This document shows positions 13,440 to 42,884 of a stretch of DNA of 42,884 nt, piece after piece. Under the pieces are notes generated by a model. That model was not told the origin of the DNA, searched no databases, and was given only the letters and a program-made list of their open reading frames with translations. Source of the stretch: a virus; the IMG/VR virus record IMGVR_UViG_3300050011_000099; one strand, given 5' to 3'. A program made the translations under genes and the position numbers. Position 1 is the first letter of the stretch; every line of letters starts with the position of its first letter.

Positions 13440-14518
13440 TAGTACCCCGCTTCTACATTTAAGGCTCCGAGGGCGCTAAGTCCCGTGGTTCCCGCAAGTG
13501 TATTGCACACCGCGTCCAAACCGAGGTTGGTGGTCCCGGCTTTTGCGTTCAAGGCTGCGAGCAATCCCAAGTTCGTGGTGCCCGCGTAGGCGTTCGCTGC
13601 TGCCAGTTCGCCAAGGTTCGTGGTTCCTGCGAGAGAGTTGAGCACGAACTGCCAGCCCATGGTTGGCGCGCCACCGCTGCCTCTAGTCACGACCCACTGG
13701 GCGTACAGTGTGACAGAAGCGGTGAATGGGTATGTCGCACCGTTGGCATAGGCCGTCCCGCTCCCGTTGGCTGCGGTATTCCAGCCGGTGAAAGTATGCC
13801 CGGTGCGAGTGAAAGTGTTGGTGGTGAGGGCCGTCGGTGCACTTTCAACCTGGGCCGTCATGCTTCCCGCTCCGCCGTTGTTGTTGAAGGTGACGGTGAA
13901 ACTCTGGAGCGGCTTAATGCTTATCATCACTTCGTTCCAGTAAGCGGTTCCCGTCAACGGATAAGTAGTAGTATGGGCCAATGAATCAGTAGAAATCAAT
14001 GTGGCCGAGGCAAGTATGTCTGGCGATCCTCCGTTATTGATTCGAACCGTGAAACCGTTAGTGGGCGAGATCGTGGTAATCGTCGCAGTCGCTGCCGTCG
14101 CGACAGCTATCCACATTTCGTTAGCCACAGCGGGGGTTGCGAGCGTCGGCGCAACCATCGTTGAAGTGTCGGCGTTATTCACGCCAGCCTGATCGACCCA
14201 TGAAGAAGTGGCACAGCCCGAGAGTTCAAGTACCTCCGCAATATATACGTAACTTGTTATGGCGACACTGATCGACGTGACCGATGACGTGCAGAGGCAC
14301 GTCCAGATTTCGGCACTTTTGTAATTTGCAGTTGCAGCGATTCCTGCGGCTTTAGTCCAGGTGCCGCCTCCCGTTATACTCGTTACTCCGGACCCGGCCA
14401 CGGTCAGCGTGCCGAACAGAAGAACCAGTATGTTTCCGACGGTCGTCGCGACTACCGTGATGGTTGGGTTTTGTGTAGCAAAATATTCCGGATTGTCATT
14501 GACTACCAAGATTGTCAT
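13439..14518 (-). CDS. Tail fibre or receptor-binding protein (359 aa) with a Listeria-Bacteroides repeat (Flg_new-like) domain and C-terminal AGTTNLG repeats.
   Basis: The ATG at 14518 forms an ATGA overlap with the tailspike stop. FTVTFNNNGGAGSM..FTRTGHTFTGWNTAANGSGTAYANGATYPFTASVTLYAQW fits the Flg_new pattern. AGTT(N/G)L occurs four times at the C-terminus. Confidence 0.65.
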   Translation of the reverse strand: MTILVVNDNPEYFATQNPTITVVATTVGNILVLLFGTLTVAGSGVTSITGGGTWTKAAGIAATANYKSAEIWTCLCTSSVTSISVAITSYVYIAEVLELSGCATSSWVDQAGVNNADTSTMVAPTLATPAVANEMWIAVATAATATITTISPTNGFTVRINNGGSPDILASATLISTDSLAHTTTYPLTGTAYWNEVMISIKPLQSFTVTFNNNGGAGSMTAQVESAPTALTTNTFTRTGHTFTGWNTAANGSGTAYANGATYPFTASVTLYAQWVVTRGSGGAPTMGWQFVLNSLAGTTNLGELAAANAYAGTTNLGLLAALNAKAGTTNLGLDAVCNTLAGTTGLSALGALNVEAGY

Positions 14519-20284: not shown

Positions 20285-21295
20285 TTACAGGTCCTCCGTG
20301 GGCGTGTCAACGCCAGCGGTCGTGTTTTGACCAATCGAACTAGCGGATTCTTGACGCCAAATGGAAGCGGAACGGAACACCCCATAGGCGCCCATCCATT
20401 TAAATCCAAGCGGCTGGAAGCGGCGGAGGTAGTCAGTGATCGGGCCCATGACGATGACCGGGTGAGGGCCGTTGCCATCCTTCATTGCCCACACCTTGGC
20501 CAAGGCTTGACGACCTAGGAACAGGGTGCCGTAGACATCGGTGTCGGTGGTCGAAGACCCGGCGTCCGCGAACAGCGGAGCCGTTGGGGTCTCGATGAAC
20601 CTCGCACCAGCGAAGGCGCCGATTTCACCACGGAACACTTCCTCGGGAGCCGAGTAGATGTGCGGGGCGATGAGCGCCTGGTTACCCGACTCTTGCCAGA
20701 GGTCGAAGGACACGTCCGGGTGGATGAAGGTGAGGTAGTACCCACCGTATCCAGGGACGTTGTTGCGCTTCAGGGCCGCCACGTTGTAGCGGATGTCGTA
20801 GGCACGCATCGTGTCCAGTGGGGTGATCTGGTTCCTCGCGGTCGGCGGCTGTCCGGCCGTGCCGACAGTGACGCCAGGACCAGCGGAGTAGTTCACGTTC
20901 GAACCGCCCTGAAGCTGAATCTTCGCCACTTCGTCAACGGTTCGTCCGGCCCAGTAACCAACGGCGTTGGCCTGTACTTCGTCAATGGAGACAAAGGACT
21001 GTGCGCGAACGTCAGCCGTGGTGATGGTGCCACCACCATACTCAGCCAGAGTCAGGGTGACTTGGCTAGAGGTGAGGGCTACCGGCGTGATGTCGGTTGA
21101 CTCATTGAGCGAGGTCGTTGCCAGCGCAAGGTCGTTCTGGACGTTAAAGACAACGCTAGAACCGGCCATTGACTGGTTGGTGGGCTTGATGTCCGCCACT
21201 TGGTCGAAGTACAACTCCGGTCGAAGGGCGTAGTAGGCCAGCATGTCGTACGCAGTCTGTACGTAGTCAACTGTCCCCGTGGTGGTATATGCCAT
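20285..21295 (-). CDS. Major capsid protein, HK97-fold, resembling the N4 gp56-type family.
   Basis: The 336-aa ORF lies directly after the scaffold gene. The TAYDMLAYYALRPELYFDQVA N-terminus, EYGG, IHPDVSFDL and GEIGAFAGARFIETP segments match my memory of that capsid family. Confidence 0.8.
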   Translation of the reverse strand: MAYTTTGTVDYVQTAYDMLAYYALRPELYFDQVADIKPTNQSMAGSSVVFNVQNDLALATTSLNESTDITPVALTSSQVTLTLAEYGGGTITTADVRAQSFVSIDEVQANAVGYWAGRTVDEVAKIQLQGGSNVNYSAGPGVTVGTAGQPPTARNQITPLDTMRAYDIRYNVAALKRNNVPGYGGYYLTFIHPDVSFDLWQESGNQALIAPHIYSAPEEVFRGEIGAFAGARFIETPTAPLFADAGSSTTDTDVYGTLFLGRQALAKVWAMKDGNGPHPVIVMGPITDYLRRFQPLGFKWMGAYGVFRSASIWRQESASSIGQNTTAGVDTPTEDL

Positions 21296-21320
21296 GTATT
21301 AAGGGCCTCCTAGCCCCGAA

Positions 21321-21812
21321 TTAAATCGGTTCGGGCCAGACTCCAACGAGACCATCCCGGTTCTTGAAACCCGGCTGACCTACGACTTCACCAATAATTC
21401 CCATCAACTCCTGCTTGGACTTGGCGTTCCTCATGGCAATTGCGAGGTCAACATCACCTGATGCGGCTGGCGCTCCACCACCTGCGTTAAGAATCTGCCT
21501 CTGAGCAGCGATTTCCTCAGCCGAAGGGCCTTGGTTCTCTGCTTGAACTGCGACGATTCCGTACTTCTCGGCGTACGCCTTGATGTTCTCGGCGTCCATT
21601 GGACCGTCGTAATTCTCAAAGACAACTTCTCGTGCGGGGTGATTCGGAACTCCTGCTGCGACAACTACGTCCATCTTCTCCCGCTTCGCATTGAGCAAAG
21701 TGGCGGCTTCTAAGTCTCTGGCGGCCTTGCGCCCTTGACGAAGTTGAGCCTGGATTGAAGGGGACAGTTGCTGTTCTTCTGGTGATAGTTGTTCTTCGTT
21801 CTGATCTGACAT
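21321..21812 (-). CDS. Scaffolding protein (163 aa).
   Basis: The ATG at 21812 follows AAAGGAG. The protein is acidic and helical (MSDQNEEQLSPEEQQLSP...) and lies immediately upstream of the capsid gene. Confidence 0.6.
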   Translation of the reverse strand: MSDQNEEQLSPEEQQLSPSIQAQLRQGRKAARDLEAATLLNAKREKMDVVVAAGVPNHPAREVVFENYDGPMDAENIKAYAEKYGIVAVQAENQGPSAEEIAAQRQILNAGGGAPAASGDVDLAIAMRNAKSKQELMGIIGEVVGQPGFKNRDGLVGVWPEPI

Positions 21813-21984
21813 TTCAAATTCTCCTTTGGGTACGCGCCATCGTCGGAGTAACGACGCGGGATAGCCGAACATGGCTTCACATGCGAACAACTCGCGAACT
21901 TGACGTGGCATGGATTGTCAAGCCGGAATCGCACCGCACCTAGGTCAAACTATGACGCCAAGGCAACAGACATGCTTGGTGAGA

Positions 21985-22013
21985 ATTACAGCATGGTTAT
22001 TTAGAAAAGTCAA
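21985..22013 (-). promoter_or_regulatory. Candidate sigma70-type promoter TTGACT-17-TGTAAT, upstream of the scaffold and capsid genes.
   Basis: On the minus strand, TTGACT lies at 22013-22008 and TGTAAT at 21990-21985. This is the only gap of about 200 bp in the structural train. Confidence 0.35.
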
Positions 22014-22018
22014 GCACC

Positions 22019-23254
22019 CTAACTTGTGCCGAAGCCCGCGCCCGCTACGCCGCCTTGATCGGAGGCGAATCCGCCGCCGCCTTCTGACGGAGCAGCGCGA
22101 GTCTGCGCGGCGCGTTGCGTCGCTTGTAGGGCTTGAGCGTTACCTTCACCAGCGGCTAAGAGTTGTTGCTGGCTCACAACGCCAGGACCATTGGCCGCGG
22201 TTCCAAGTTGCGCCTGCTCAAAACCCGAGGCAGCCATGACGCCCAAACTCGCGAGACCTGAACCCGGAGAGGACGAGAAGAAGTTGGCGGCCTGCTCGGG
22301 AGACAACTGGTTCTGTCCCGAGTTAGAGAGGAAGGCTTGCAGGGCGTACGCCTGGGATTGTCCGATTTCCCCGAATCCCGTAGTCACCCCTTCGCCACCG
22401 GCCACCGCGGAGTTGAACTGTTGCTGCAACGTGTTGATGGTGTTGGCTGGGTTGAGGTAATAGGAAGCCAGTTGGCCGGTGGAAAGTCCTTGGGTATAGC
22501 CGTAGTTCTGTAATTCAGCCTGAATCTGAGGCTGAGCGTTTATCGCGTTGGTGTATTCCGTAGTGATTCGGTCACTCATCTCGGAAGTAGATACGTCCCC
22601 GGCCCAGGCGTTTCCGATGTCTTGGGAAGTAAGAGTTCCCGGAACCAATCCCGCGGTTTCGGCCATGGCCTGAAGTTGCTGGCGATAGGCCATGTAGCCC
22701 GCAATCCCCGCTCCGGTATTGGCGTCAGTGTTGGTGTAACCATTGGTTATGCGCTGGTTGTAGCCCGGCATAATGGCGTCGAAGCCCGGCGCGTTGTTGA
22801 TGGTCGCGCCAATCTGGGTCTGGATATCGCCCGCCGTCATGCCTTGACCGGCCAGCAGGGTGATCTGGGAATTGACCCAACCAGCGAGTGAACCCAGGCC
22901 GAAGGTCTGCATCTGCGCGTCAACGGTTGCCGTGGCTGATTGGGCGCTGGAGGTGTAGTTCGATCCAACGGTCCCCGGAATAACTGAACTCGTGCCGTCC
23001 GACATAATCTCGGTAACGGTGCCATCGGGACCGGTGGTGGTGGAAACTACCGTGGGCGCGGCGAGGGTCGGGGCTGGTCCAGCGGGAGCCGGAGCAGCGG
23101 GAGCCGGAGCAGGGACCTTTTTGTCAGCGGCCACGCGATCAGATAAAGCCTCTACCGCGGCGGTGGTTGCTGGGGTCGGGTTCGCCTTCGCGGCGGCCTG
23201 GCGTACTTTAAGTTCAGCCTCGGCCGTTGAGAGAGCAGTAGAGATATCAGTCAT
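22019..23254 (-). CDS. Low-complexity virion protein (411 aa). Putative internal or ejection protein.
   Basis: The ATG at 23254 forms an ATGA overlap. A PAPAPAAPAPAGPAP linker is followed by a Q/N/T/G/A-rich body. Confidence 0.55.
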   Translation of the reverse strand: MTDISTALSTAEAELKVRQAAAKANPTPATTAAVEALSDRVAADKKVPAPAPAAPAPAGPAPTLAAPTVVSTTTGPDGTVTEIMSDGTSSVIPGTVGSNYTSSAQSATATVDAQMQTFGLGSLAGWVNSQITLLAGQGMTAGDIQTQIGATINNAPGFDAIMPGYNQRITNGYTNTDANTGAGIAGYMAYRQQLQAMAETAGLVPGTLTSQDIGNAWAGDVSTSEMSDRITTEYTNAINAQPQIQAELQNYGYTQGLSTGQLASYYLNPANTINTLQQQFNSAVAGGEGVTTGFGEIGQSQAYALQAFLSNSGQNQLSPEQAANFFSSSPGSGLASLGVMAASGFEQAQLGTAANGPGVVSQQQLLAAGEGNAQALQATQRAAQTRAAPSEGGGGFASDQGGVAGAGFGTS

Positions 23255-24933
23255 CAGACCCCACCGAAGCCCCACTGCTTGCCCAGACCCGTCATCACAC
23301 TGTCCGACATTTGCTGGGCGTTATTAGACGTATTGAACTGCGGCATCGTCACCAGTTTCTGCTGCACCTGGTCCAAGGTTAGAGCCTGCTTCACTCCCGT
23401 CTTAGCATCGGGGGTGGCAATGACCCAGTTCCAGTCGGGAGAAGTGTAGTTAATGCTGCCCGGAGCGATTCCGAGGGTATTGGAAATCATCTGTGAGTAA
23501 GGCTGAGTGTACTGCGTCGGGGTTATTCCTTGGGCAATGGAACTAGCCAGACTGGGATACATCTGGCTGGCCTGGGTTATCATCTGTTGAGTGAACTTCG
23601 CTTCCGCACCGGCGATGAGGTTCGATGAACCAAAGGAAGACCCCGAACCGGTGTAATCCTGCAAGGTCGATTCCACCTGATTCATCAGGCTCTGATTGGT
23701 CAAGAGACTGGCTCCGGGATTAGTGGGGTTATACATCAAATACTGCTGGGCGATGTTCTGAAACCCGGCGTACAACTGGGATGAGATACCGCTCAGTCCG
23801 GTGGGTGCGCCCGTTCCGCTCGGGGTGGCCATTTGGGTGAAATCACTCTGACCAGGAGCCAAGGTGGAGAAGTCCAAGGGGATTTTCCCGGTGTTCTGGC
23901 CTTGGATGTTTTCTAAAGTATCCACGATGGCCTGGTCCAGCCACTCCGCCGCCGTCCCTGAGGCAGTACCAAAACTTCCCGAAGCCACGTAGTTGTTCTT
24001 CGCGTAGGCCAGAGCAATGGCGTCGAGTTGCTGTTTACTAAGAGTTACGCCTATTTGGTTAGCATCCGCCAGGACTTTCTCCTGGGCGTTCTGCAACGCT
24101 TGGTTGGCCTGGGCCGGGTCGGTCCCTGGCGATCCATTGGTCCCGTACGCCTCATCCCAATAACGACCATTGGAAGTGGTGGTCTTCCACCAATTCGTCT
24201 GAGCGAGCATGGACTGAAACTGGTTGGTCGCGGCGGCGTCGGTGGTGGACGGGTCTAGGTTCACCGCCGCATAGAGCATGACCGCATTCACCTGAGGAAT
24301 GTTCTTCCACCAATTCGTCTGGTAGCCGTACTGCGTCTCCAGTTTCGTGTCTATCGTTTTCGCGTAACCAGGATCCTCGACATATTGCTTGATGGTCTGT
24401 TCCATCTTGCCGAGTTCAGTGGAATTGTTAAAAGGCGTCAGGTCGTAGCCATAGAAGCTCTTGATATTGGCACCCGCTATCGGGGCGACGGTCGGGGCCT
24501 TGGGAATGTTGACGGCGCCGACTTCTCCGGAGCCTCCTCCGCCTCCAGTACCTGCCGCTGTAGCCAGATAAGCGTCTAAACCCCCGTAGCCATTGGGCTT
24601 GCCGGTATTCCATATTGATGCTTCGACCTGCTGATTAATGTCTGATACGGAGCCAGCCTTAAAAGCGCTAATAATCGCCGGATAGTTCTTGAGGTTGGCG
24701 ACGGTCGCGTTAATGCCTCCTTGGACGTTCCCAGAGGCTCCAGCCGCGTGCCCGGCCGGATTACCTACTCCGAGGGGGTTGCCCTTGTTGGCCTCAAATG
24801 CAGTGAGGTTCGGGCCGCCCTGTTCGTTAGCGAGCCAGTTGACGAACCCCTGCACGGTCGTAGCGTTTACCGGCGCACCGATACCCTTGAGTACTCCATC
24901 AATGAACTGAGTCGCAGAGGCTGGGATTGTCAC
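23254..24933 (-). CDS. Low-complexity virion protein (559 aa). Putative internal or ejection protein.
   Basis: An ORF with ATGA coupling at both ends. It contains an internal QTNWWK duplication. Confidence 0.55.
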   Translation of the reverse strand: MTIPASATQFIDGVLKGIGAPVNATTVQGFVNWLANEQGGPNLTAFEANKGNPLGVGNPAGHAAGASGNVQGGINATVANLKNYPAIISAFKAGSVSDINQQVEASIWNTGKPNGYGGLDAYLATAAGTGGGGGSGEVGAVNIPKAPTVAPIAGANIKSFYGYDLTPFNNSTELGKMEQTIKQYVEDPGYAKTIDTKLETQYGYQTNWWKNIPQVNAVMLYAAVNLDPSTTDAAATNQFQSMLAQTNWWKTTTSNGRYWDEAYGTNGSPGTDPAQANQALQNAQEKVLADANQIGVTLSKQQLDAIALAYAKNNYVASGSFGTASGTAAEWLDQAIVDTLENIQGQNTGKIPLDFSTLAPGQSDFTQMATPSGTGAPTGLSGISSQLYAGFQNIAQQYLMYNPTNPGASLLTNQSLMNQVESTLQDYTGSGSSFGSSNLIAGAEAKFTQQMITQASQMYPSLASSIAQGITPTQYTQPYSQMISNTLGIAPGSINYTSPDWNWVIATPDAKTGVKQALTLDQVQQKLVTMPQFNTSNNAQQMSDSVMTGLGKQWGFGGV

Positions 24934-26573
24934 GGTGCTCCAGCCCCAACAGTGGTGGGTGCGGTCGTTCCCGCTTGATCGGCTACCGGTCCGGTGAAGG
25001 CATCAGACGCATTCTGGTTGTACATGCTCGTAGTGCCAGAGAGCATCTTGTTAAGGACCTCGCCCCAACTAGCTGACTGCGCGGCGTAGTAACCAGTGGG
25101 GTCAGACTGCTTGGCGGCTAGGTCCGCCTCCGCCGTGGCGTCGGGTGCCGTTGTTTTCACCGTAACGGCATCGTTGTTCACCTGATTCTGCAACGCGGTG
25201 ATCTGATTATTCACTTCGCTGGCAACTGAATCACCAAAAGTCGTGAGGTTGGCGCCTTTAGAAGTCCCCAGCGGAGTGCCGGACGCAATGGCAGAAATGG
25301 CCTTGCTCCAACTTCCACCGTTCGCGTCGTAGGCGTTGGAGAGCAGAGAAGTAAAAGCGCCAAGTTGAACAGACGAGGGGGCGAGTCCCGGTGAGGTGAA
25401 CTTCTTGGCCGCCGGGTAGAGTTTCTGCGCCTCGGTCCAGTCCGCCTGGTTAAGTGCATACGCACCGCCGTAGGTGGTAGAAGTCGGTTGAGCGAAGTGG
25501 GTGGGGGCGATTTGCTGATTGCCGCTCTTTACCTTCTCGTTCACGGTTCGGCTGAACTTCGAAGTAACCACCGGCTGGCGCGACGTTACCGGCGCTCCCA
25601 AGCCACCAATATTGGGAAGCCCTTGGGAAAACTCTGACTGAGCATTCTGCATCGACGTGGTGTTGGTCGCACCCTGAGGAGTAGGAAAGCCGGGAGGAAG
25701 TTTGGCGGTGGTCGTCTGGTTGACCGGTATCGACGCCGTTCCGTTCGCCGCAAACACCGGGCTCGTTCCCTCCAGGTTCGTTTGCGCGGGACCTTGCGTA
25801 GTTCCCGCTCCCGGTAGTTTGGTCCCTGTCACAGCCGCCTGGTAAGCAGAGATGACTGAATCAATCCCGTCAGGACCTAGTTTGTTTAAGGCCGAGACTT
25901 CCGAGTGCGCTTGGGCAATCTCAGCCTGCGCCGCGGCCCTTGGACCTTCGGCGTAAGACGCGTCCTGTCCCTGAACCTGGCTGATGAAGGACTGAATCTG
26001 GGCCTGGTCGGGGGAGTAACCGAGAGCGTTCTCAAACGCTGAAGTTAAGGTTGCCGAGAGAGTAGTCGGATTCTCCTGATTTACAATGGTAGGCGCAGTG
26101 GCTGATTCTGTTGCCTTGGTGAGATCGGCGGAGATTTGGCTCCCGATGGCCGCGGTCGGGGTAGCGTTCTGAGTGAGGAACGAAATGACATCGGTTCCCT
26201 GCGATGCCGCGTCACCCTCCAATGACTTGAATGCAGAGACATTGGTGGAATTTGATATCCCGGTAGCAGCCGTCGTAGACAGAGCGCCTATCGCCACCAT
26301 CTGGTCTTGAATGCTTTGACGTTCTTGCTGCGTCATGGCGACGTACGAGGCCAAGTCCGCGGCCTGCTGGTTCAACTGTCCATTGGTGAGGAAGAACTGC
26401 TGCTCGGCTGAAGTTATGCCGTAGGCCGGATCAGAGAAGAACTCCGCAGGAGTGGTGGACTTTTGGAACGCTGCTAGTTGCGCCGACGTGGTGCCATCAG
26501 AACCACCGGCGAAAGAACCCGAGGTCCCGGCTGTTGAATTTCCGGTCGGGTTGTAGGCCGCGATGGCACCCAT
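24930..26573 (-). CDS. Low-complexity virion protein (547 aa). Putative internal or ejection protein.
   Basis: TAATG coupling to the 1496-aa gene. The composition is Q/N/T/S/A/G-rich. Confidence 0.55.
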   Translation of the reverse strand: MGAIAAYNPTGNSTAGTSGSFAGGSDGTTSAQLAAFQKSTTPAEFFSDPAYGITSAEQQFFLTNGQLNQQAADLASYVAMTQQERQSIQDQMVAIGALSTTAATGISNSTNVSAFKSLEGDAASQGTDVISFLTQNATPTAAIGSQISADLTKATESATAPTIVNQENPTTLSATLTSAFENALGYSPDQAQIQSFISQVQGQDASYAEGPRAAAQAEIAQAHSEVSALNKLGPDGIDSVISAYQAAVTGTKLPGAGTTQGPAQTNLEGTSPVFAANGTASIPVNQTTTAKLPPGFPTPQGATNTTSMQNAQSEFSQGLPNIGGLGAPVTSRQPVVTSKFSRTVNEKVKSGNQQIAPTHFAQPTSTTYGGAYALNQADWTEAQKLYPAAKKFTSPGLAPSSVQLGAFTSLLSNAYDANGGSWSKAISAIASGTPLGTSKGANLTTFGDSVASEVNNQITALQNQVNNDAVTVKTTAPDATAEADLAAKQSDPTGYYAAQSASWGEVLNKMLSGTTSMYNQNASDAFTGPVADQAGTTAPTTVGAGAP

Positions 26574-29500
26574 TATGGAGTCTTCCAGTTCTTAGCAGTG
26601 AAGGTTCCCGGCGTAGCGTTCGCAATGTTCACCTGTGGAGCAGTAGCCGTAGGTATCGACATGAAGAGTCCGGTAATAACGTTAATCATCTCCGGGTCCG
26701 AGGTAGCAGTAGACACCAAGTAATTGTCCCACGAGTCCTTGGCTTCGGTTTGCATAGTGCTGGAACTTCCATCAGTAGTAAGGGTGGTTATCTGGTTCTG
26801 GTAGGCGGCGTAACCCTGCAATAAGGTCCGGGTGTTGTTGGCAATGTCCGACGTAATGCCGGGATTCTCGTTGAGTAGTTTGGTCATCTGGATTATCGCC
26901 TGACCTCTTTCGGTCTCCCTTGAGTCAGAGTTGAACCAGTTGCCCCAGACGGGATTCTGCTGGGCGTACTTTCCTATCGTCCCACTACCTAAAGTACCGT
27001 TGCCCCAAAACGCCTGGTCAGCGTTGTATTTATCCGTTCCGGAAAGACTCTTGATCTGCGCTTCGTACTGCGCCAGCCACTTGTAGAAAATCGAATTACC
27101 GGCCGCGATGTACAAAGCATCGATGTACGAAGGCACCGAGCCGTTCTGCGTCCACTGCTCAGGGTCCAACTTGGACCTTAAGTTCTGGGCGATCTGCTCG
27201 TTGTAGACGGCCGCGTTGTACTTGGTCGATAACCCAGTGGTCGGCATCAGGAGAATCCCGGCATTGGGATAGCGGGTTATGAGGTCGTAGTTCTGGTTAA
27301 TCCAATTCTCCGCCGCCGTTGAAGAGGGCACGCTCATCCCTGTTTGCTCCGAACTCTGCCAGACCGTGAACGGCGTAGCGTCGGGATGCTTGGAAAGGAA
27401 CTCCTGCAAGCCCGCGCTCACAGACTTCTTCGCAGTGATATCAGCGGACAGTTCTTGAGAGAACTGGTTATAGACCTGGTTGGTCAACTCAGGCGAGACT
27501 GGAGTAACCGCACCAACTAATGCTTTCATGGTGTAGAGAATCCTGGTCTGCATTCTCACCCGGTCCATGAACGCTTGCATCACTCGGTAGTTACTCCCCG
27601 CGGGTGGAATCTTGCCTTCGTAGTCGAGCGTCGCCAAGGTCTGCATCATCGTGGAGTCAAAACTTCGTGTATTGAATCCTGGCATCCACGCTGTGAGCAG
27701 GCGCTGTGCAACGGTGTTAGGGATCATCTGCTCGTAGATGGGTTCGGTAGAAGTCGGGCCAAGAATGGTAGAGGCATCTGCCGACAGGTCAGCCTTCAAT
27801 ACTGGAGACAAGGTTTCGGGAAACGCTTGGGCGATGGCAGAAACGGCAATGGAAACCAGTGGGCCAATATCTGGACGCACTCCTGCCGAGAGAGGGAAGA
27901 TGACGCTAGAACTTGAGAGGTTCCAACCCATCCCAACGGGAGTAGATGAGTCAGCATCGACCCCCATCATCGAAAGACCAGCGACTGCACCGGAAGTTAA
28001 GAATCCAGTCCCCGGCATCACTAGGTAGCCTTGCCCATTCTTGCCAGAGAACACTTGGCCCACGTCGTGCATGTTGGAAATCATCAACTGGTACTTGCGA
28101 AAGGCTGCGGGGTCTTCGGCTAGCAACCTCCCCATCCTGCGATACGCCTGCTCTTGAGCGAAGTAGAACGGTGCCCAGTTCCTGAACGTCTCAGTCCACT
28201 GGGTTCTATCGGTCAGGTTGTGGACGTTCTTGATGACGTTCTGAGTCGAGGTAATCATGGCTTGAGCGTGCGCCTCTTCGTCAGTGCGTATGCCATCTTC
28301 TACTGACTGTTCCAGTATGCCTCGCTGCGCCCTGTACTCCGCGAAGGCAATTGGTTCACGAGAGAGGAAGTTGACCATTGGATTGAGGACCCTGCGAAAT
28401 CCCGAGTTCGCGATTCTCTGTAATCTCGGATCACCGTTGGGCAGTGGCAATCTACCCGACACCATTGCGGGTCGGTCCTCACCAGAAATGTTGCGCAGTT
28501 CGTTGTCGTCAACGGTCTCGCCGTTTCTGATGTGGTCTAAGAGTTCCGTGCGTACAGTGCCGTTCTTTCCCGTCACGAGTCCTCGTACATTGTCCGTGAC
28601 GGCTCGCGCCCATTCGTCGTACTGGTCCATGTCCGGAGGGCGAGGTGTCTCCTTGGGAAACGATGTGATGGTCTCCTTGGAACGAAGCATCTTGCCGCGT
28701 TCCTTTAACGGCATGTTGCGCTGGAAGTCGGCAACGTCAGGGTACGCCGCGTGCGTCGCTTCATCAAGGCTGAGGCCGCTGTCTAATCCATCGCGCAGTT
28801 TGCCCGCGGCCAACTGCGAAGCATCGTCGTTACCGACTTCATGCAACCTTGCCTGCCATGCATCGTTGAACTGCGCGTGACCATCTTGGAAGATGCCGAA
28901 GTCGTCGCCCGTCTTGGGCTTCTTGGGAGAGTTGAAAAAACTGCTGCGCAACGCATTAGTGGATTTCTCGTCTCGCGGAGTCAGGTCATCAGCGAATGAC
29001 TCCGAACCATGCCCCGCAGCCACGTTCAGAGGAACGCCAGTGGGGTCAGTTCCTTCTATGAAATCAACGGCGTAGTTGAGGTCCTTCTCCGTCGTGTTAT
29101 CTATTACGCCCGGAGTCACCGCTCTCGCCCCACGAATGAGTTTCCACGCTAACGCCGCTACCACCGAGGCATCGCCCTCACTGACCTTCACGCCGATCTT
29201 GGCGGCGGACAGTTCCATGCGCGAGCGAACCATGTTCACTATCCCCAGACGAAGGGTGTTGGGTATCAACTCCGCGAGTGCAATGTGTAGCGCATACGAA
29301 GGCGACATCAGGACCCAGCGTTTGAAAATCGGCGCGGTCAGATGGTCGAAGGCAAAGTCATCGAGCCCGCCAATCTTTGCCATTATCTTCTGATCGCCCA
29401 AGATGCGTGAGACGCGACGGGCCTGCAACATATCAAGACCGGAAATTGGACCCGTCTGATTCTTGGTTATCCCGGCGCTCATCGTCGTTCCGGTCTCGGT

Positions 29501-31063
29501 GTCGCGAACCTTGGAGATGTCAGCCATTGGATCGCCGCCCATCCCGTACACCGCGTCCTTGCCGAACATCCCCGTGTCAATGAAGCGAGTAATAGCATCG
29601 CCCCACATCTGTTGCACCTTGGGGTCCTCAGATTTTGACGCGAGGAAATCCTCCATTGAGATGCCGCGCATCTTGGCCGTGTTCGCCAATGTGGACCACA
29701 CGAGCTTGCGCCAAATCTTTATCTTTCCCGGAAGGTCGGCGTTCGCGTACTCCGTCATGATGGCCGCAGCGACGGTTCGGTTCTCTGTGAATAACGCGGT
29801 ACGTCCAACGAACAACGTCCCGTCATCTTCACCAACGGGGTTGAACTCTTTGTTGGTCCACACTTTCGTCGCGTCGTCAATTGATTCAGGTAAGCGAGAA
29901 GTCGCGTGATACAGCCGTTGCATTCCCGGCAATGTTGAATCGCCCATCGCTTCATGCGCCAACTGAAATGGCAGACGAGTGACTGACAACGTAGGTAACT
30001 TGTCGAAGTACACCATCTCGTGTGTGCGCACGATGTCACGGAATATCTTGGTTACGTCTTCTTCCGTATTCGCATCACCTAACGCTTTTAGCAATTCACT
30101 CTGTTGGGCCAACGGTTTGTACGCCGAAGTGAGAGCAATCTCACCCGCGTTCTTCGACGCGATATCCGCGAAGGCCCTACGGACGTTCCCACCACTGAAC
30201 GAACCAAGGAGGTGGTCGAATGCCTCGGTCGTCTGTGGCGATTTTCCGGGGAACATATCACCCAGGGTTCCGCCTAATCCTGCTGCTGAATTTGCCTTAC
30301 CCGCGAGCCCAAGTAACTCCGTTCCGCCCACGTTCATGTCGAAGATTCCGTCAATGAGGCCTGAAGTTATTTTAAACGCTGGACCGTTACGTTCAAAGCC
30401 GGGGACGCCGAGGCTGTCAAGTTCCGAGGTTAAGTCTCTACCTATGGACACCTGTTGGTGGGTATTGGGGTCGGCGTAGGAAGCCTTGGCGGTGCGATCC
30501 CAGGAGTCCTTGTAAAAGAGTTGGCTCTCTATTCCAGTTGCCGCCTCGGCTCCCAAGTCAGCGCCGTAGAAACTACCGGTGGTCATGGCCCCCGCCACTG
30601 CTCCACCGGCTATGCCCAAACCTTCCAATAGCGCCGCGGTCATGCCGTGGGTGGCTTCCACATCATGCAGATACCGATACTCGTGTTGAACAATTTGCAT
30701 GGGTTTGTTCATGGTCGAAAGAACTTTGCTTCCTACGTCGATAGCGCCTTGCACTACGTCGTGTCCCACCGCGCCAACGTCAGCAACGACGTGATTTCCG
30801 AACCAGTCCAGAGCGTGCTGCAAGGTGTCGCTTCCCCCAACGGCAGTGGAAACGGCGGCGTGAGCGTTGGTATCCGAAAGGATGTTCGTCCCTCTGGCAA
30901 CCGCTTGAGAGTTGCCCTGCACGTCACCACCGGCGCTGGCAATCCCTACGCTAAGACCCGGCGATTTGCTTAATTCCGGCGCTGTGTTAAGAACGGTGTT
31001 AAGAGAAGTAGCGAATGCGCTCGGATCACTAGGAGGTGGCGCTTGACTAGAAGTGTCGGTCAC
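26573..31063 (-). CDS. Giant virion protein (1496 aa) of unknown function. Putative internal or ejection protein.
   Basis: A long uninterrupted ORF with a GTG start. I could not recognise any enzymatic motif by eye. Confidence 0.6.
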   Translation of the reverse strand: MTDTSSQAPPPSDPSAFATSLNTVLNTAPELSKSPGLSVGIASAGGDVQGNSQAVARGTNILSDTNAHAAVSTAVGGSDTLQHALDWFGNHVVADVGAVGHDVVQGAIDVGSKVLSTMNKPMQIVQHEYRYLHDVEATHGMTAALLEGLGIAGGAVAGAMTTGSFYGADLGAEAATGIESQLFYKDSWDRTAKASYADPNTHQQVSIGRDLTSELDSLGVPGFERNGPAFKITSGLIDGIFDMNVGGTELLGLAGKANSAAGLGGTLGDMFPGKSPQTTEAFDHLLGSFSGGNVRRAFADIASKNAGEIALTSAYKPLAQQSELLKALGDANTEEDVTKIFRDIVRTHEMVYFDKLPTLSVTRLPFQLAHEAMGDSTLPGMQRLYHATSRLPESIDDATKVWTNKEFNPVGEDDGTLFVGRTALFTENRTVAAAIMTEYANADLPGKIKIWRKLVWSTLANTAKMRGISMEDFLASKSEDPKVQQMWGDAITRFIDTGMFGKDAVYGMGGDPMADISKVRDTETGTTMSAGITKNQTGPISGLDMLQARRVSRILGDQKIMAKIGGLDDFAFDHLTAPIFKRWVLMSPSYALHIALAELIPNTLRLGIVNMVRSRMELSAAKIGVKVSEGDASVVAALAWKLIRGARAVTPGVIDNTTEKDLNYAVDFIEGTDPTGVPLNVAAGHGSESFADDLTPRDEKSTNALRSSFFNSPKKPKTGDDFGIFQDGHAQFNDAWQARLHEVGNDDASQLAAGKLRDGLDSGLSLDEATHAAYPDVADFQRNMPLKERGKMLRSKETITSFPKETPRPPDMDQYDEWARAVTDNVRGLVTGKNGTVRTELLDHIRNGETVDDNELRNISGEDRPAMVSGRLPLPNGDPRLQRIANSGFRRVLNPMVNFLSREPIAFAEYRAQRGILEQSVEDGIRTDEEAHAQAMITSTQNVIKNVHNLTDRTQWTETFRNWAPFYFAQEQAYRRMGRLLAEDPAAFRKYQLMISNMHDVGQVFSGKNGQGYLVMPGTGFLTSGAVAGLSMMGVDADSSTPVGMGWNLSSSSVIFPLSAGVRPDIGPLVSIAVSAIAQAFPETLSPVLKADLSADASTILGPTSTEPIYEQMIPNTVAQRLLTAWMPGFNTRSFDSTMMQTLATLDYEGKIPPAGSNYRVMQAFMDRVRMQTRILYTMKALVGAVTPVSPELTNQVYNQFSQELSADITAKKSVSAGLQEFLSKHPDATPFTVWQSSEQTGMSVPSSTAAENWINQNYDLITRYPNAGILLMPTTGLSTKYNAAVYNEQIAQNLRSKLDPEQWTQNGSVPSYIDALYIAAGNSIFYKWLAQYEAQIKSLSGTDKYNADQAFWGNGTLGSGTIGKYAQQNPVWGNWFNSDSRETERGQAIIQMTKLLNENPGITSDIANNTRTLLQGYAAYQNQITTLTTDGSSSTMQTEAKDSWDNYLVSTATSDPEMINVITGLFMSIPTATAPQVNIANATPGTFTAKNWKTP

Positions 31064-31149: not shown

Positions 31150-31605
31150 CTAGGCGGCTCCCCCTTGAGCCCTTGCTGCTAAATCTTTAATCGCTGAGGT
31201 CGCGTTGGGTTGCGCGGCCAGCGAAGTAAGCAAGTGACTTAGCGTTCCCTGTTCAACTGCACCCTGACGTGCCGCTGCGCCAATACCTTGCAACGCTTCC
31301 GGACCCGCGCCCGGTCCCATTGGCAGTCCGTGGGTGACGGGTTCGTTGGGACGTTCGGTGGGACGAGTGAGAGGACCATTGGCACCAGGGACTGCTAAAG
31401 GCTGTTGAGGTGCTTGGGGCTGCGCCTGCGGAGGAGTCTGAGTCGGCGCAGCCCCAAGAGGTGGTTGACCCATGGGGATTGCTTGTGCTGCTGCACGCTG
31501 CGCGGCAGCGACACCGTAGGGTTGGTTCGGTACTGCTTGCGCGGAGGGCTGCGTGAGGTCAGCGCGATTCGGTTGCAGTTGGCGAGAGGCGCGAGCGTGT
31601 GGCAT
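31150..31605 (-). CDS. P/Q/A-rich protein (151 aa).
   Basis: ATGA overlap with the endonuclease VII stop. It shows colinear similarity to the portal C-terminal tail. Confidence 0.6.
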   Translation of the reverse strand: MPHARASRQLQPNRADLTQPSAQAVPNQPYGVAAAQRAAAQAIPMGQPPLGAAPTQTPPQAQPQAPQQPLAVPGANGPLTRPTERPNEPVTHGLPMGPGAGPEALQGIGAAARQGAVEQGTLSHLLTSLAAQPNATSAIKDLAARAQGGAA

Positions 31606-32114
31606 CAGCGAAACCGATCAAGGTACGCGATGGCATTGTGCAACAAAAGGGGACTGTCACGCAAATGACCAAGCCCGGAATTGCACGGGCGGCAAAGAAG
31701 TCCGCGAACACATGCGCCGCAACTCTTCTTTCCGGGACAGCATGAATGGTCATGGTCTACAGCCCAGCCGCCTTTCTTGGTACCGGGATCGTCGCCCCCA
31801 CAGATAGCGCAAACCCCTCCTTGCGAAGCCAGAAGATCTAAATAGTCCTGTTCAGTGAGGTTATAGAAATTACGTAGAGCAATGATGCGCTGTTTCGCGT
31901 TCAATTCATCTTTGTTCGCTTCGTAATAAGCCCTGTCGTTTTCCTTGATTCGCTCGGCGTTACGCACACGCCATTCACGATGGTAGGAAGCCTGATATTC
32001 CTTGCGTCCAGAAGTCAATCGACGCTCAGCATCTCGTTCGCGGCCTCGGCGTAGCACCTCCTCGCGATTCGCCTCGCGGTACGCGCGCTGGCGCTCGGCG
32101 TCGTATTTGCTCAT
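31605..32114 (-). CDS. Recombination endonuclease VII family nuclease.
   Basis: CAICGG..WAVDHDHSCC..CVRGLLCRPCNSGLGHL is the Endonuclease_7 signature. It has ATGA overlaps on both sides. Confidence 0.85.
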   Translation of the reverse strand: MSKYDAERQRAYREANREEVLRRGRERDAERRLTSGRKEYQASYHREWRVRNAERIKENDRAYYEANKDELNAKQRIIALRNFYNLTEQDYLDLLASQGGVCAICGGDDPGTKKGGWAVDHDHSCCPGKKSCGACVRGLLCRPCNSGLGHLRDSPLLLHNAIAYLDRFR

Positions 32115-33985
32115 TGGGCTAGAGGACTCGGCGCTTGTTGACTCATGCTTTGTTCTGGACCGCTTTGTGCCGCTGGCTTTCTCAAGTTAGAAAGAATGCT
32201 TGCGAGTGCGCCTTGACCGGGAGGTGGCATCGGAACTCCGCCTTGCACACCGGGAGCGCCCGTCATACCGGGCATCTGTCCCGGAGCCGGGGGTTGACCG
32301 GGAGGCGGTGCGGCTGCTTGCTGCGCGGCTTGTTCCTTTTGCATCTCGGCGTGGACCTTTACCAGAGCGTCTTCAGGATTCGTCTTTCCATCCTGCAACG
32401 CCTGAGCGAAGCGAGCAATGAACGTGGGGTCGATCTGACCCTGTGATGCACCGGTTTCGACACTGCTCATCATGGCCCGGCGAGCACCGCCGATGTTGAT
32501 ACGGGCCATCTCTTCCTGCACGTCTTCGACTACCGGGTCCATCTCCATGAACGTCTCTTGAGAGATCGTTTCCATTTGCAGACGTTGGCCCATGGCGATG
32601 ACAAAAGAGTTGGCGTCGGTCCCGGTCATCCCATACTTCACAACGTTCTGATCGTTGAAGAAGACTTCATCCGGAACGTAGTCGTTCTGAGTTATTTTTC
32701 CGGTTCGTGGGATGTAGAAGGAGAACTGCTTTTTTCCCCAGTGACCCTTGACAACAGCCATCGCCCGGCGGTTCTCGGCTTCCATGGAGTCTTCAAATAT
32801 CTCTTGATGCTCCTGAACCGGCATATCAATCGCTGCACCTAGGACCGCCTCTCCCCTTCGGGCTGTACGGATATTGGTCGCACTTTCTCCGCCCAGTTCC
32901 GCAGGAAGTCCACCTGCCAAACGTCCGGTACGTTCAAGTCGGTCCTGCATTTGGGCTGCTTGAATACTTGGCTGGGTCTGGGTGTCTTGAATCTGGCCAT
33001 TGCGTATCTCTCCGATTGTGTTGGTCAACCCGTCGGCGTAGGTGATTATCTGGGCCTGTCCGGGGGAGTTGGGATGTGAGACCAGCCACCTATCGGCAAA
33101 GATGCTTTGCTTGATTGCGATGTATTCCAGCGCAGCTAACTTCGATGCGTTGTGATAGAGCGGCATCAACTGGTCGAACATGCCGCAGAGTTTGTTGAGT
33201 GTCACACGTCCGGGATAGACCGTTAACGGAATCCCCGCCCGGTTCGGTACGCGAGTCAACTGCACACAACTTTGCGTGCCGACGTTCTCTCTCGTGAACC
33301 CTCCATACTGAGGTCCTTCATTGACTTTCGTTTGTCCTAAAGCCACCAAGACCGTTTCGTCACAGTCGTTGTATTCCAGAATCTCGAACATCGTTGACGG
33401 ACTGGCGTTCTTGCCCTTGTAGAGAACATTAGCTTGGTCGGGATACAGGCTCTGGAGCCACGAGAGGGGTTGTAAGTAGGCGTTGATGCAGTCACTGGGT
33501 TCGATGTCGTTGATGTCCACCGTGGGGGCGGGAAAGACACTCATGGGATTCAACACTCGCCAGTGGGGAATCTCTCTCTTGTCCAACGGATTCACCGCGA
33601 GGAAGGAGATTGACACCGGCGAGGCCCCGTAGCCCAACAGATACCGCGCCCGGCGACGCAGGATCATGTCCATGCGGTTCATATCCCAGTAACTGAGCAA
33701 CGCTTTGCGTTTTGAATCAGTGACGTTCTCCGACCCTTTTTGACCGGGCTTTAAAGGGTCACAGGAGATGTCCGGCATCGTCGAGGCAATACGCATGGCC
33801 AGTTGGTCGAGGCCCGGACCAAGCAAGTTGACGGCCATGGATTTCTCGTCTTTGTCTAATTCACTAACGGGCACGACGACATCGCCATCGGCCTGACGGT
33901 TGACCTCCGCCCAACGAGTGAGGAGAGGTCCGCGCTCTGCTTGACGTTCTCGGTACCAGTTCTCGATCTGGAAGATGTCAATCAC
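32111..33985 (-). CDS. Portal protein (624 aa) with a P/Q/G-rich C-terminal tail.
   Basis: The call rests on position directly after TerL and on size. No specific motif was verified. Confidence 0.7.
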   Translation of the reverse strand: MIDIFQIENWYRERQAERGPLLTRWAEVNRQADGDVVVPVSELDKDEKSMAVNLLGPGLDQLAMRIASTMPDISCDPLKPGQKGSENVTDSKRKALLSYWDMNRMDMILRRRARYLLGYGASPVSISFLAVNPLDKREIPHWRVLNPMSVFPAPTVDINDIEPSDCINAYLQPLSWLQSLYPDQANVLYKGKNASPSTMFEILEYNDCDETVLVALGQTKVNEGPQYGGFTRENVGTQSCVQLTRVPNRAGIPLTVYPGRVTLNKLCGMFDQLMPLYHNASKLAALEYIAIKQSIFADRWLVSHPNSPGQAQIITYADGLTNTIGEIRNGQIQDTQTQPSIQAAQMQDRLERTGRLAGGLPAELGGESATNIRTARRGEAVLGAAIDMPVQEHQEIFEDSMEAENRRAMAVVKGHWGKKQFSFYIPRTGKITQNDYVPDEVFFNDQNVVKYGMTGTDANSFVIAMGQRLQMETISQETFMEMDPVVEDVQEEMARINIGGARRAMMSSVETGASQGQIDPTFIARFAQALQDGKTNPEDALVKVHAEMQKEQAAQQAAAPPPGQPPAPGQMPGMTGAPGVQGGVPMPPPGQGALASILSNLRKPAAQSGPEQSMSQQAPSPLAQ

Positions 33986-42695: not shown

Positions 42696-42884
42696 AGTTC
42701 GCTCTCGATTCGCACGACGAGCCAGTTTGAGTATTTGTTCCAGACGGCACTCCTGGCGGCACTCTCGGCGGCACTCTCGGCGGCACTCTCGGCGGCACTC
42801 TCGGCGGCACTCTCGGCGGCACTCTCGGCGGCACTCTCGGCGGCACTCTCGGCGGCACTCTCGGCGGCACTCTCGGCGGCACTC
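42692..42884 (-). CDS. 3' part of the wrap-around repeat gene (paralog A).
   Basis: The frame through the 12-mers reads (SAAE)n SAARSAVWNKYSNWLVVRIESEL, then TGA at 42694-42692. That stop overlaps the next ATG (ATGA). The ORF track lists only the wrong-frame PPRV ORF here. Confidence 0.8.
   Translation of the reverse strand, partial: SAAESAAESAAESAAESAAESAAESAAESAAESAAESAAESAARSAVWNKYSNWLVVRIESEL
42743..42884 (-). repeat. 12-bp tandem repeat: one variant unit gacggcactcct, then ggcggcactctc x10.8.
   Basis: Read directly. Bases 42755-42884 are identical to 1-130. Confidence 0.95.

Follow-up and report, generated by a model that had tools for sequence, protein, structure and literature searches.

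The closest described relatives of the locus reported here belong to the Beephvirinae, which are podoviral by electron microscopy (PMC11536984). In these Streptomyces phages (Olicious, Immanuel3, Kumquat and Abafar), the portal gene is followed by small ORFs, a giant gene (about 1645 aa), mid-size genes, the scaffold gene and the capsid gene. SEA-PHAGES annotators label two products of this cassette (gp11 and gp12) as “minor tail proteins”.

Podoviral ejection proteins, also called internal virion proteins, include T7 gp14-16, P22 gp7-20-16 and SU10 gp20-24. The long helical body of T7 gp16 is preceded by a transglycosylase domain at the N-terminus (aa 1-156; PMC8954989), and in the kuravirus SU10 the proteins gp20-24 are lost from the virion upon genome release (PMC9509320). 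Known ejection proteins have themselves been paired mostly through size and synteny, and phi29-like podoviruses lack them (review, PMC8954989). In Pascal, a Bacillus phage of the Pagevirus group, a lysin (the “lytic tail protein” gp18, encoded with gp17) is paired with a giant Cys-free protein (gp19, 1672 aa), as in the locus described below. Minor head proteins of the SPP1 gp7 / Mu gpF type are head-internal and portal-associated.

The window (the whole stretch of DNA analysed, 42,884 nt) is a complete phage genome with a 130-nt terminal repeat. Positions 22019-31063 hold four consecutive minus-strand ORFs encoding 1496, 547, 559 and 411 aa, together 9045 nt or 21% of the window, in agreement with the “roughly a fifth” estimated in a previous sequence-only reading. 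These genes and their neighbours are, in the order of transcription:

32111..33985, minus strand: portal gene (phrog_104, E 5e-9), the upstream boundary of the module neighbourhood
31150..31605, minus strand: g151, a small Pro/Ala/Gln-rich, Cys-free protein directly upstream of g1496 (phrog_8200, E 9e-15)
26573..31063, minus strand: g1496, 1496 aa, GTG start
24930..26573, minus strand: g547, 547 aa
23254..24933, minus strand: g559, 559 aa, GTG start
22019..23254, minus strand: g411, 411 aa if started at the ATG, 418 aa if started at a GTG upstream of it
20285..21911, minus strand: scaffold-position gene (196 aa) and major capsid protein gene (336 aa), the downstream boundary

Read directly, the junctions are TAATG (g1496/g547), GTGA (g547/g559) and TGATG (g559/g411), and overlaps of 1 or 4 nt are seen again in relatives. 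The sequence-only reading had described four coupled, low-complexity giant genes joined by TAATG and ATGA overlaps; it was right about the coupling, the place, the size and the TAATG, but the supposed ATGA is a GTGA with a GTG start, only one of the proteins is giant, and “low-complexity” is inaccurate, because low-entropy windows take in only 4-17% of the residues of the four proteins. The fixed stoichiometry that it proposed is a deduction from the overlaps and is not supported. Its description of three proteins dominated by Q/N/T/S/A/G with few charges holds for g547, g559 and g411 (QNTSAG 0.57-0.63, charged residues 0.09-0.11), but the tail proteins of the same phage are alike (0.51-0.54 and 0.09-0.10, respectively); the composition of g1496 is ordinary (QNTSAG 0.44, DEKR 0.20). 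That no catalytic motif could be seen by eye was borne out, since Pfam, NCBIfam and PDB searches with g1496, g547, g559 and g411 gave no match.

Judged from their homologues, all four ORFs are real genes (80 homologues for g1496, 57 for g547, 66 for g559 and 603 for g411, the last counted as cluster representatives at E <= 1e-3). Those of g1496 are about 1450-2336 aa long, lie on 40-45 kb contigs and are conserved in length and sequence from end to end. The order terminase, portal, small protein, giant protein, two to four mid-size proteins, scaffold and capsid is shared by the window, by L003 (a distant relative of the window phage), L004, L014 and L015, and by the Beephvirinae, the module being homologous and syntenic to Streptomyces podovirus gp9/gp11-12/gp13 and to loci of many 40-45 kb metagenomic phages. 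The giant gp9 corresponds to g1496, to which its homology is traced through the intermediate L004_1522 (gp9 against L004_1522, E 3e-9; L004_1522 against g1496, E 1e-144; the profile match is collinear); gp11 and gp12 are homologues of g559 (family profile, E 1e-21 to 1e-27) and gp13 of g411 (E 1e-57). The module family is uncharacterised and is also present in known Streptomyces phages; with a layout conserved in the Beephvirinae (>30 isolated phages) and in a large metagenomic clade, the arrangement is not one of a kind.

The major capsid protein (PF13252, E 4e-21; phrog_1357, E 1e-60) is 37-40% identical to Beephvirinae capsid proteins and the portal is 41% identical to the L004 protein in the portal position, while the 196-aa protein matches phrog_7813 and owes its scaffold label to position only. 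Homologues of g151 adjoin the giant gene upstream in L004 (154 aa, E 2e-12), L003 (139 aa) and L014 (161 aa), and its C-terminal motif AAQPNATS..IKD is recognisable in Olicious gp7 too, the similar Beephvirinae protein; g151 is probably a fifth module member. The four genes, probably with g151, make up a conserved cassette, coupled in translation, that lies between portal and scaffold. The Beephvirinae nevertheless differ from the window in several respects: the g559 type is represented by two paralogues, a 272-aa gp10 stands where the window has g547 (which has no counterpart in them), 15-35 tRNA genes lie between gp13 and the scaffold (none in the window), and an endolysin gene occupies the interval from terminase to portal, in place of the endonuclease VII gene of the window. 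In addition, their copies have recognisable NlpC/P60 and SLT domains, whereas those of the window do not.

The T7 proteins gp14, gp15 and gp16 of the internal core, or ejectosome, are likewise encoded in a clustered operon, range from small to very large and have helical, Cys-free bodies; T7 and the module both have Gly/Ala-rich, moderately hydrophobic segments, and the lytic transglycosylase at the N-terminus of gp16 resembles the SLT-bearing members of the g559 family, although here the hydrolase sits on mid-size carriers and not on the giant protein as in T7. The sizes of SU10 gp20-24 (260, 350, 322, 551 and 1473 aa) are similar to those of the window proteins (151, 411, 547, 559 and 1496 aa); all are Cys-free, one SU10 member is a transglycosylase, and gp21/22 are similarly QNTSAG-rich and charge-poor (0.66-0.67 and 0.07-0.09 DEKR). 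L003 moreover has an SU10-type capsid protein, and Pascal, which infects a Gram-positive host, has a capsid protein about 30% identical to that of the window. Yet the T7 genes come after the tail-tube genes (in a phage whose host has two membranes), the SU10 genes end the tail module (host E. coli), and Pascal gp17-gp19 are encoded after the tail genes, beside the lysis cassette, and annotated as tail-associated, whereas the module lies between portal and scaffold; against these three gene orders, the location was correctly called unusual. HMMs of the four families gave nothing significant against T7 gp13-16, SU10 gp19-24 or Pascal gp17-19, and Foldseek searches of the PDB with the g559 and g1496 models gave no match at E <= 0.001.

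The g559 protein divides as follows:

24544..24933, minus strand: g559 N-terminal domain (aa 1-130), eight helices, the slot filled by cell-wall hydrolase domains in relatives
23254..24485, minus strand: C-terminal part of g559 (aa about 150-559), the “carrier” domain, which is conserved and all-alpha and has FGFGG at its end

The AF2 model predicts a well-folded g559 (pLDDT 86.6), with an N-terminal domain at around 90, a disordered linker (132-144) and a C-terminal part of high confidence. Close homologues are 68-78% identical over the C-terminal 75%, yet carry SLT_3+SLT (PF18896/PF01464) or NlpC/P60 (PF00877) at the N-terminus; SLT/SLT_3 occurs in 14 homologues and NlpC/P60 in one, and further members have SLT- or glucosaminidase-like N-terminal domains below threshold. 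The family profile also matches phrog_6654 and a 557-aa L003 protein with a Peptidase_M23 domain (profile E 1e-21; domain 7.6e-19), and its Beephvirinae matches carry NlpC/P60 (Olicious gp11, 3.6e-30) and SLT (Olicious gp12, 6.6e-5). In the same way, the g411 core (aa about 100-410), which in the Cys-free window protein follows a helix and a Pro/Ala linker, represents a broad phage family whose members often have N-terminal wall-binding or wall-hydrolysing domains: Glucosaminidase (3), Transglycosylase-like (3), SLT (2) and SLT_3 (1), as well as LysM (4.9e-15) in a 470-aa L003 protein (profile E 4e-73); L004_339 (4e-63) and phrog_8424 match too. By these comparisons, both families are carriers with an exchangeable N-terminal slot, in which relatives place peptidoglycan-cleaving or -binding domains. 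Pfam, NCBIfam, PDB-profile and Foldseek searches found no peptidoglycan-cleaving domain in g559, g411, g547 or g1496 themselves, although homologues do have them (SLT, SLT_3, NlpC/P60, M23 and glucosaminidase). The window has the operon and the giant protein with its helices; a hydrolase function is demonstrable in homologues alone. In the window-type N-terminal domain of g559, the conserved positions are E37, N52-P53-L54 and W108. This domain found no match in Pfam, in the PDB or with Foldseek (lysozyme-like folds included), and hhalign did not relate it to the SLT type. As for g547, a Cys-free, QNTSAG-rich protein specific to this clade and variable in its central region, neither it nor its 57 homologues have a Pfam domain, it gave no PDB sequence match, and profile comparison did not link it to g559 or g411; it is presumed to be an ejection-module subunit.

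The features of g1496 bearing on its role are:

30644..30688, minus strand: most conserved N-terminal motif in the alignments (aa 126-140, QHEYRYLHDVEATHG)
30518..30643, minus strand: Gly/Ala-rich helical hairpin (aa 141-182), moderately hydrophobic, with AF2 helices at 141-162 and 165-182

In a 24-sequence alignment, Q126, H127, Y129, R130, Y131, V135, A137, H139 and G140 are invariant and E128, H133, D134 and E136 nearly so; with 59 sequences, only Y129, R130, Y131, V135 and G140 of the motif remain invariant, the others being at least 90% conserved. The columns with the lowest entropy are those of this motif and of aa 951-1000. The hairpin reaches a Kyte-Doolittle maximum of 1.40 (1.34-2.03 across 24 homologues and 2.1 in L003_2336), comparable to the peaks of T7 gp16 (1.44) and SU10 gp24 (1.49); a value of 1.4 is weak for a true transmembrane helix, and we regard the segment as a candidate membrane-active one. 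The AF2 model of aa 1-1200 consists mainly of helices. Its confidence is moderate (pLDDT 66.5), and a fold match may therefore have been missed: Foldseek found nothing in the PDB with E below 0.28 and, in BFVD, one match to an uncharacterised phage protein (E 3.6e-6).

Several known identities were considered for the giant protein and rejected. A tape measure is contradicted by the lack of any TMP match in Pfam or PHROG, by a gene upstream of the capsid gene and by relatives that are podoviral by electron microscopy; BFVD matches of the model to TMPs were not significant (E 0.0096 at probability 0.16, others weaker), and the window phage showed neither tape-measure nor sipho-type tail genes. 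For an N4-type virion RNA polymerase, there was no Pfam or PDB-profile match, and Foldseek with aa 1-1200 gave no such match above noise in the PDB or BFVD (best match labelled “RNA polymerase”, E 1.6). The four proteins showed no homology to RNA polymerases, tape measures or catalytic domains. Likewise, a MuF, SPP1 gp7 or LPD identity has no Pfam match in g1496, g151 or the 80 homologues, and only the post-portal position fits: SPP1 gp7 / Mu gpF-type proteins are also encoded directly downstream of the portal, but they are far smaller and have no wall-enzyme partners, and the module has no PF04233 match.

We consider, with a probability of roughly 0.6, that the module encodes ejection proteins carried inside the capsid, with a slot for wall enzymes that can be exchanged, in a Beephvirinae-like short-tailed phage that probably infects Actinomycetota. 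Among the possibilities raised in the sequence-only reading, a capsid-internal ejectosome, or a conduit spanning a Gram-positive wall, is the one best supported, if indirectly, by the hydrolase swaps, the avoidance of cysteine, the alpha-helical models and the likely hosts. In the proposed mechanism, the module proteins would co-assemble into the procapsid near the portal and, after adsorption, would be expelled partly unfolded through the portal and the channel of the short tail, either before the DNA or together with it. The heads of g559 and g411 would then open the thick wall locally, and g1496 (with its Gly/Ala-rich hydrophobic hairpin), proposed as the main conduit or pilot protein, would together with g547 lengthen the short tail into a conduit reaching and perturbing the membrane. 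The weakest step is the presumption that the unrecognised, all-alpha N-terminal domain of g559 performs the function of the hydrolases swapped in elsewhere.

The module members are essentially Cys-free and predicted to be alpha-helical. Cysteine makes up 1.43% of 34 other ORFs but is absent from the 3013 aa of the four window proteins (naive P about 1e-19), and the four families hold two in about 111,700 residues, of which one is the catalytic Cys of NlpC/P60, a pattern shared with the Beephvirinae cassette, which is Cys-free but for a catalytic Cys; T7 gp15/gp16 and SU10 gp20-24 also have none. Avoidance of cysteine would also suit any extracellular protein.

In the main rival, which we hold to be unlikely, the proteins would be external tail-tip or tail-knob components, acting as tail-associated lysins that digest the wall from outside, and the head would contain none of them. 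Such an arrangement would parallel phi29 gp13 or the Pagevirus “lytic tail protein”, which in Pascal adjoins the 1672-aa giant where the tail module ends. In phages that infect Gram-positive bacteria, tail-associated lysins typically show wall-hydrolase fusions, the minor tail protein annotation of Beephvirinae gp11/gp12 comes with peptidase or glycosylase notes, and the absence of ejection proteins from phi29-like podoviruses counts in the same direction. However, the tail cluster of the window phage comes after the capsid gene, while the module lies separately, upstream of scaffold and capsid; the g559 and g1496 models are all-alpha or mostly alpha, unlike the beta-rich folds of fibres and spikes; p930 and p739, both tail proteins, contain 10 and 13 Cys, and the module none; a helical protein of 1496 aa is hard to fit on a short tail; and no homology was found to the Pascal or phi29-type proteins tested.

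Less probable still is that g1496 is a packaged “polyvalent” effector that enters with the DNA and counters host defences or serves takeover of the cell instead of building a conduit, with the wall-enzyme carriers as independent accessory lysins. MuF-type head-internal proteins and toxin fusions are encoded just after the portal, where the very large g1496 also lies, and two motifs of high conservation in it (aa 126-140 and aa 948-992) may represent functional sites. The BFVD Foldseek matches to “Large polyvalent protein associated domain” proteins of uncultured phages are weak (E 0.04-1) and not significant (probability 0.16-0.30), though, and neither g1496 nor any of its 80 homologues has a Pfam domain, enzymatic and MuF ones included; moreover, g1496 is conserved end to end, unlike mosaic polyvalent proteins.

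Very improbable is an internal assembly core or auxiliary scaffold that helps to build the head around the portal and is removed before or during packaging without being ejected, since, despite translationally coupled genes between portal and scaffold and window copies devoid of a catalytic domain, the wall-hydrolase and LysM fusions of homologues would make no sense in a purely cytoplasmic factor, the extreme Cys avoidance suggests an extracytoplasmic phase, and a separate scaffold-position gene is already there.

One further element, read from the sequence, lies in the 107 nt that separate g411 from the scaffold-position gene:

21985..22013, minus strand: promoter-like element, TTGACT, 17 nt, TG-extended TGTAAT

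The promoter scanner passed over it because it demands an A at position 2 of the -10 hexamer. As a candidate promoter, the element gives a hint that scaffold and capsid may have a transcriptional boost of their own.

The passage of DNA from short-tailed phages through thick Gram-positive and actinobacterial walls is poorly understood, and the block of four genes between portal and scaffold (about 20% of the genome) provides candidates for this task: a giant helical protein and two carriers with interchangeable wall-hydrolase heads, with a near-total avoidance of cysteine as their signature. We read this block as a capsid-internal ejection module, with a probability of roughly 0.6. Every gene between about 700 and 35,869 lies on the minus strand, and the order around the module (whose proteins are named by their length in residues) is the following.

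Gene order from the large terminase to the major capsid protein
35869-33995, minus strand: large terminase (phrog_38, E 1e-41)
33985-32111, minus strand: portal (phrog_104, E 5e-9)
32114-31605, minus strand: endonuclease VII gene (PF02945, E 1e-21)
31605-31150, minus strand: g151, a Pro/Ala/Gln-rich protein of 151 aa
31063-26573, minus strand: g1496, 1496 aa
26573-24930, minus strand: g547, 547 aa
24933-23254, minus strand: g559, 559 aa
23254-22019, minus strand: g411, 411 aa
Downstream of g411 and before the capsid gene, minus strand: scaffold-position gene, 196 aa
After the scaffold-position gene, minus strand: major capsid protein (PF13252, E 4e-21)

The block amounts to 21% of the genome, in agreement with the fifth that the sequence-only reading had estimated. 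Direct reading of its junctions gives TAATG, GTGA and TGATG, so the proposed coupling through overlaps stands, with the correction that one start codon is GTG, giving GTGA instead of ATGA. The window is a complete genome, since it ends in an exact 130-nt terminal repeat (nt 1-130 identical to 42755-42884), being either circularly permuted or bounded by a direct terminal repeat. The endonuclease VII/HNH-type gene (31605-32114, minus strand) overlaps both of its neighbours (portal and g151), is absent at that position in three related contigs (L003, L004 and L014) and is likely a mobile homing endonuclease. Between g411 and the scaffold gene there is a gap of 107 nt (22019-21911), with promoter-like TTGACT and TGTAAT elements (17 nt apart, extended -10). 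In the Beephvirinae, a subfamily of Streptomyces podoviruses, 15-35 tRNA genes occupy exactly the interval between gp13 and the scaffold gene (about 13300-15400 in L001/L002), whereas the window has no tRNA gene.

It is with the Beephvirinae, podoviral by electron microscopy (PMC11536984), that the cassette can be aligned. Their capsid proteins are 37-40% identical to that of the window, and their annotated layout runs from portal through small ORFs, a hypothetical gp9 of ~1645 aa, gp10, gp11-gp13 and the tRNA genes to the scaffold-position gene and capsid, with gp11 labelled "minor tail protein; peptidase" and gp12 "minor tail protein; glycosylase". The g559 profile matches both gp11 and gp12 (E 1e-21 to 1e-27), the g411 profile matches gp13 (E 1e-57), and g151 shares a C-terminal motif with gp7 of phage Olicious. 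The giant protein reaches gp9 through the intermediate L004_1522 (E 3e-9 to gp9, 1e-144 to g1496), the profile match between g1496 and gp9 being weak but collinear; for g547 no counterpart was found beyond its own clade. Metagenomic relatives on contigs of 40-45 kb (L003, L004, L014 and L015) preserve both this order and the overlaps of 1 or 4 nt, with two to four mid-size genes, and the g411 family comprises 603 representatives. Both isolated Streptomyces phages and many uncultured phages have conserved the cassette, and sequenced Streptomyces phages already contain the module, mis-annotated or unannotated. Its location, rightly called unusual in that the equivalents in T7, SU10 (a Kuravirus) and Pagevirus come after the tail genes, is not a singular layout, being the norm in Beephvirinae and in the metagenomic clade. 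The slot following the portal is also home to genes for proteins that sit inside the head in association with the portal, SPP1 gp7 being an example.

Searches of the phage collection gave no match with the window at the DNA level or with g559 and g411 by tblastn (low-complexity filter on), and g1496 matched one unannotated uncultured phage. The nearest cultured relatives infect Streptomyces, and the host is probably a member of the Actinomycetota. Also pointing to such a host are homologues of the giant gene inside MAG contigs of 790 kb (Acidimicrobiaceae; L011, 10001-14097) and 220 kb (Actinomycetota; L012, 10001-13980); these copies are split over several reading frames, so that either the prophages are decaying or the long reads contain indel errors. 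The clade may be temperate, a tyrosine integrase being encoded by one relative of 64% identity (L014).

The link to the cell wall comes from the N-terminal regions of the g559 and g411 families. In the former, the C-terminal ~420 aa are conserved and the N-terminal ~130 aa are swapped: 14 homologues carry SLT_3 plus SLT or one of them, one carries NlpC/P60, further ones have sub-threshold SLT- or glucosaminidase-like domains, and, beyond the swapped part, some of those bearing hydrolases share 68-78% identity with the window protein. Olicious gp11 carries NlpC/P60 (3.6e-30) and its gp12 SLT, and the g559 orthologue in L003 carries Peptidase_M23 (7.6e-19). Among g411 relatives, the L003 orthologue has an N-terminal LysM (4.9e-15) and members with extended N-termini have glucosaminidase, transglycosylase-like or SLT domains. 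It follows that g559 and g411 are carriers of enzymes or binders directed at the wall. The four window proteins themselves gave no Pfam, NCBIfam or PDB sequence match, even with family profiles: Pfam, PHROGs and NCBIfam returned only function-unknown PHROGs, and profiles of g1496, the g559 N-domain, g547 and g411 matched nothing among PDB sequences. The g559 N-domain is confidently predicted as eight helices (pLDDT of the g559 model 86.6) followed by a disordered linker; Glu37 is nearly invariant in it, and it contains an N-P-L motif. Pfam, PDB and Foldseek searches with this domain gave no match, and hhalign did not relate its profile to the SLT type; a lysozyme-like fold is unsupported, as the g559 model found no PDB structure below E 1.6. 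Recent domain replacement suggests that it may be equivalent to the hydrolases, and it may represent an unrecognised wall-active fold. No relation among g547, g559 and g411 was detected by hhalign, and paralogy is rejected. The unrelated g559 and g411 families both have C-termini that are Gly-rich and aromatic (…WGFGGV with the family consensus FGFGG in the former, …GAGFGTS with GxGxA…G in the latter), a feature that could be a shared signal for packaging, portal docking or processing. Across the window ORFs scanned, which took in only part of the small ones, no endolysin or other peptidoglycan-hydrolase domain was recognised, whereas the Beephvirinae have an endolysin gene between terminase and portal.

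The earlier description of the proteins as low-complexity was overstated, with low-entropy windows covering only 4-17% of residues; g1496 is ordinary in composition, and g547, g559 and g411 are rich in QNTSAG (0.57-0.63) and poor in charge (0.09-0.11), as are the tail proteins, and the g559 model is a confident one. More distinctive is the absence of cysteine from all 3013 residues of the four proteins, against an average of 1.43% in 34 other ORFs of the genome (naive P about 1e-19). The four family alignments contain 2 Cys in about 111,700 residues, one of them the catalytic residue of an NlpC/P60 head (DCSGLV), which is also the only Cys of Beephvirinae gp11, and every cassette protein of L002-L004, L014 and L015 is Cys-free. 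The same holds for T7 gp15 and gp16 and for all five SU10 ejection proteins, gp21/22 of the latter also being QNTSAG-rich and charge-poor. The main alternative is that the proteins are external tail-associated lysins, as the SEA-PHAGES annotation implies and as occurs in phi29 and Pagevirus. We consider this unlikely, since the module genes are separated from the tail cluster, their predicted folds are not beta-rich, and Cys is tolerated in this phage's tail proteins (10 and 13 residues in p930 and p739).

Helices make up most of the model of the giant protein, which covers aa 1-1200 at a pLDDT of 66.5 and is better over 280-560 and 720-950. Two motifs are strongly conserved (aa 126-140 and 948-992), and so is a hairpin at aa 141-182 that is rich in Gly/Ala and moderately hydrophobic, with a hydrophobicity close to that of segments in T7 gp16 and SU10 gp24. 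Foldseek against the PDB, a check proposed with the sequence-only reading, found no homologue for the g559 model and no structural neighbour for g1496 aa 1-1200; in BFVD the g1496 model had one significant match, an uncharacterised phage protein, and its matches to entries named "large polyvalent protein" or tape measure were not significant. Tape-measure, virion RNA polymerase and MuF readings were rejected, there being no domain evidence for them. A packaged anti-defence "polyvalent" effector, which would be compatible with an ejection module, seems improbable for g1496. A core that serves only during assembly is very improbable.

The functionally closest analogues of the module are the ejectosomes of T7 (gp14-16) and SU10 (gp20-24), and the SU10 size set (260, 350, 322, 551 and 1473 aa) resembles that of the window. 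HMM searches against T7, SU10 and Pascal (a Bacillus Pagevirus) proteins found nothing, and a blastp match of L003_2336, the giant homologue in L003, to the SU10 gp24 N-terminus (E 2e-4) was discounted as Gly/Ala-rich sequence. Ejection proteins have been matched mostly by size and synteny in the literature (PMC8954989); those of SU10 were found experimentally in virions and are lost upon genome release, gp20 being a transglycosylase (PMC9509320). No virion proteomics for Beephvirinae was found in the literature. L003 (NCBI GCA_041438375.1, contig JAYKKA010000340.1), a distant relative, has a 2336-aa giant with a long Gly-zipper stretch of strong hydrophobicity (KD up to 2.1) and a capsid protein of the SU10 type (PF17236), and its carriers bear M23 and LysM heads; it is possibly an evolutionary bridge from this clade to Kuravirus-like phages.

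Based on the coupled cassette beside the portal, the Beephvirinae homology, the wall-enzyme slot, the helical predictions and the avoidance of Cys, the putative capsid-internal ejection module, the first option named in the sequence-only reading, is the best supported interpretation; that account, which described a real feature, was only partly accurate in its details. In such a mechanism, the proteins would be packed around the portal as the procapsid assembles. They would leave in extended form by way of the portal and the channel of the short tail, and such an exit would account for the counter-selection of Cys as well as for an architecture of helices that can refold. The heads of g559 and g411 would then digest or bind the wall locally, and g1496, perhaps with g547, would lengthen the short tail to reach and perturb the membrane. 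The set consists of uncharacterised families whose task is probably one already known, performed from an unusual place in the genome and in an unusual class of hosts. Current reviews place ejection proteins essentially only in phages of Gram-negative hosts, and for phages of Actinomycetota-type hosts they have been said to be absent. More tentatively, the module may be a true, portal-adjacent ejectosome in podoviruses of single-membrane, thick-walled Actinomycetota, built from families unrelated in sequence or fold to those of T7, P22, N4 and SU10, with a plug-and-play N-terminal slot and, in the 130-aa all-alpha domain of the window type, a new peptidoglycan-cleaving or -binding fold. An ejectosome in actinobacterial podoviruses would extend the concept. 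The assignment of the cassette would correct "hypothetical" and "minor tail protein" labels in >30 Streptomyces phage genomes, and the swapped domains constitute a natural library of wall-active enzymes.

Outside the module, the tail-gene cluster includes a GT4-family glycosyltransferase (11049-12479, minus strand; PF00534, PF13692 and PF20706 "GT4-conflict") and two candidate receptor-binding proteins (13439-14908 and 7363-10155, minus strand). The first of these (489 aa) has a Listeria-Bacteroides repeat (PF09479, E 1.6e-13) and overlaps a 739-aa ORF (14518-16737) by ~390 nt, so its start is probably mis-called; the other (930 aa), a homologue of Beephvirinae gp44/46, contains an Ig domain of the Rha78A type that scores below threshold. 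Near the genome end, a 269-aa protein (714-1523, minus strand) contains a putative immunity domain resembling Imm5 (PF21805, E 2.8e-9) and may be anti-toxin or superinfection-related.
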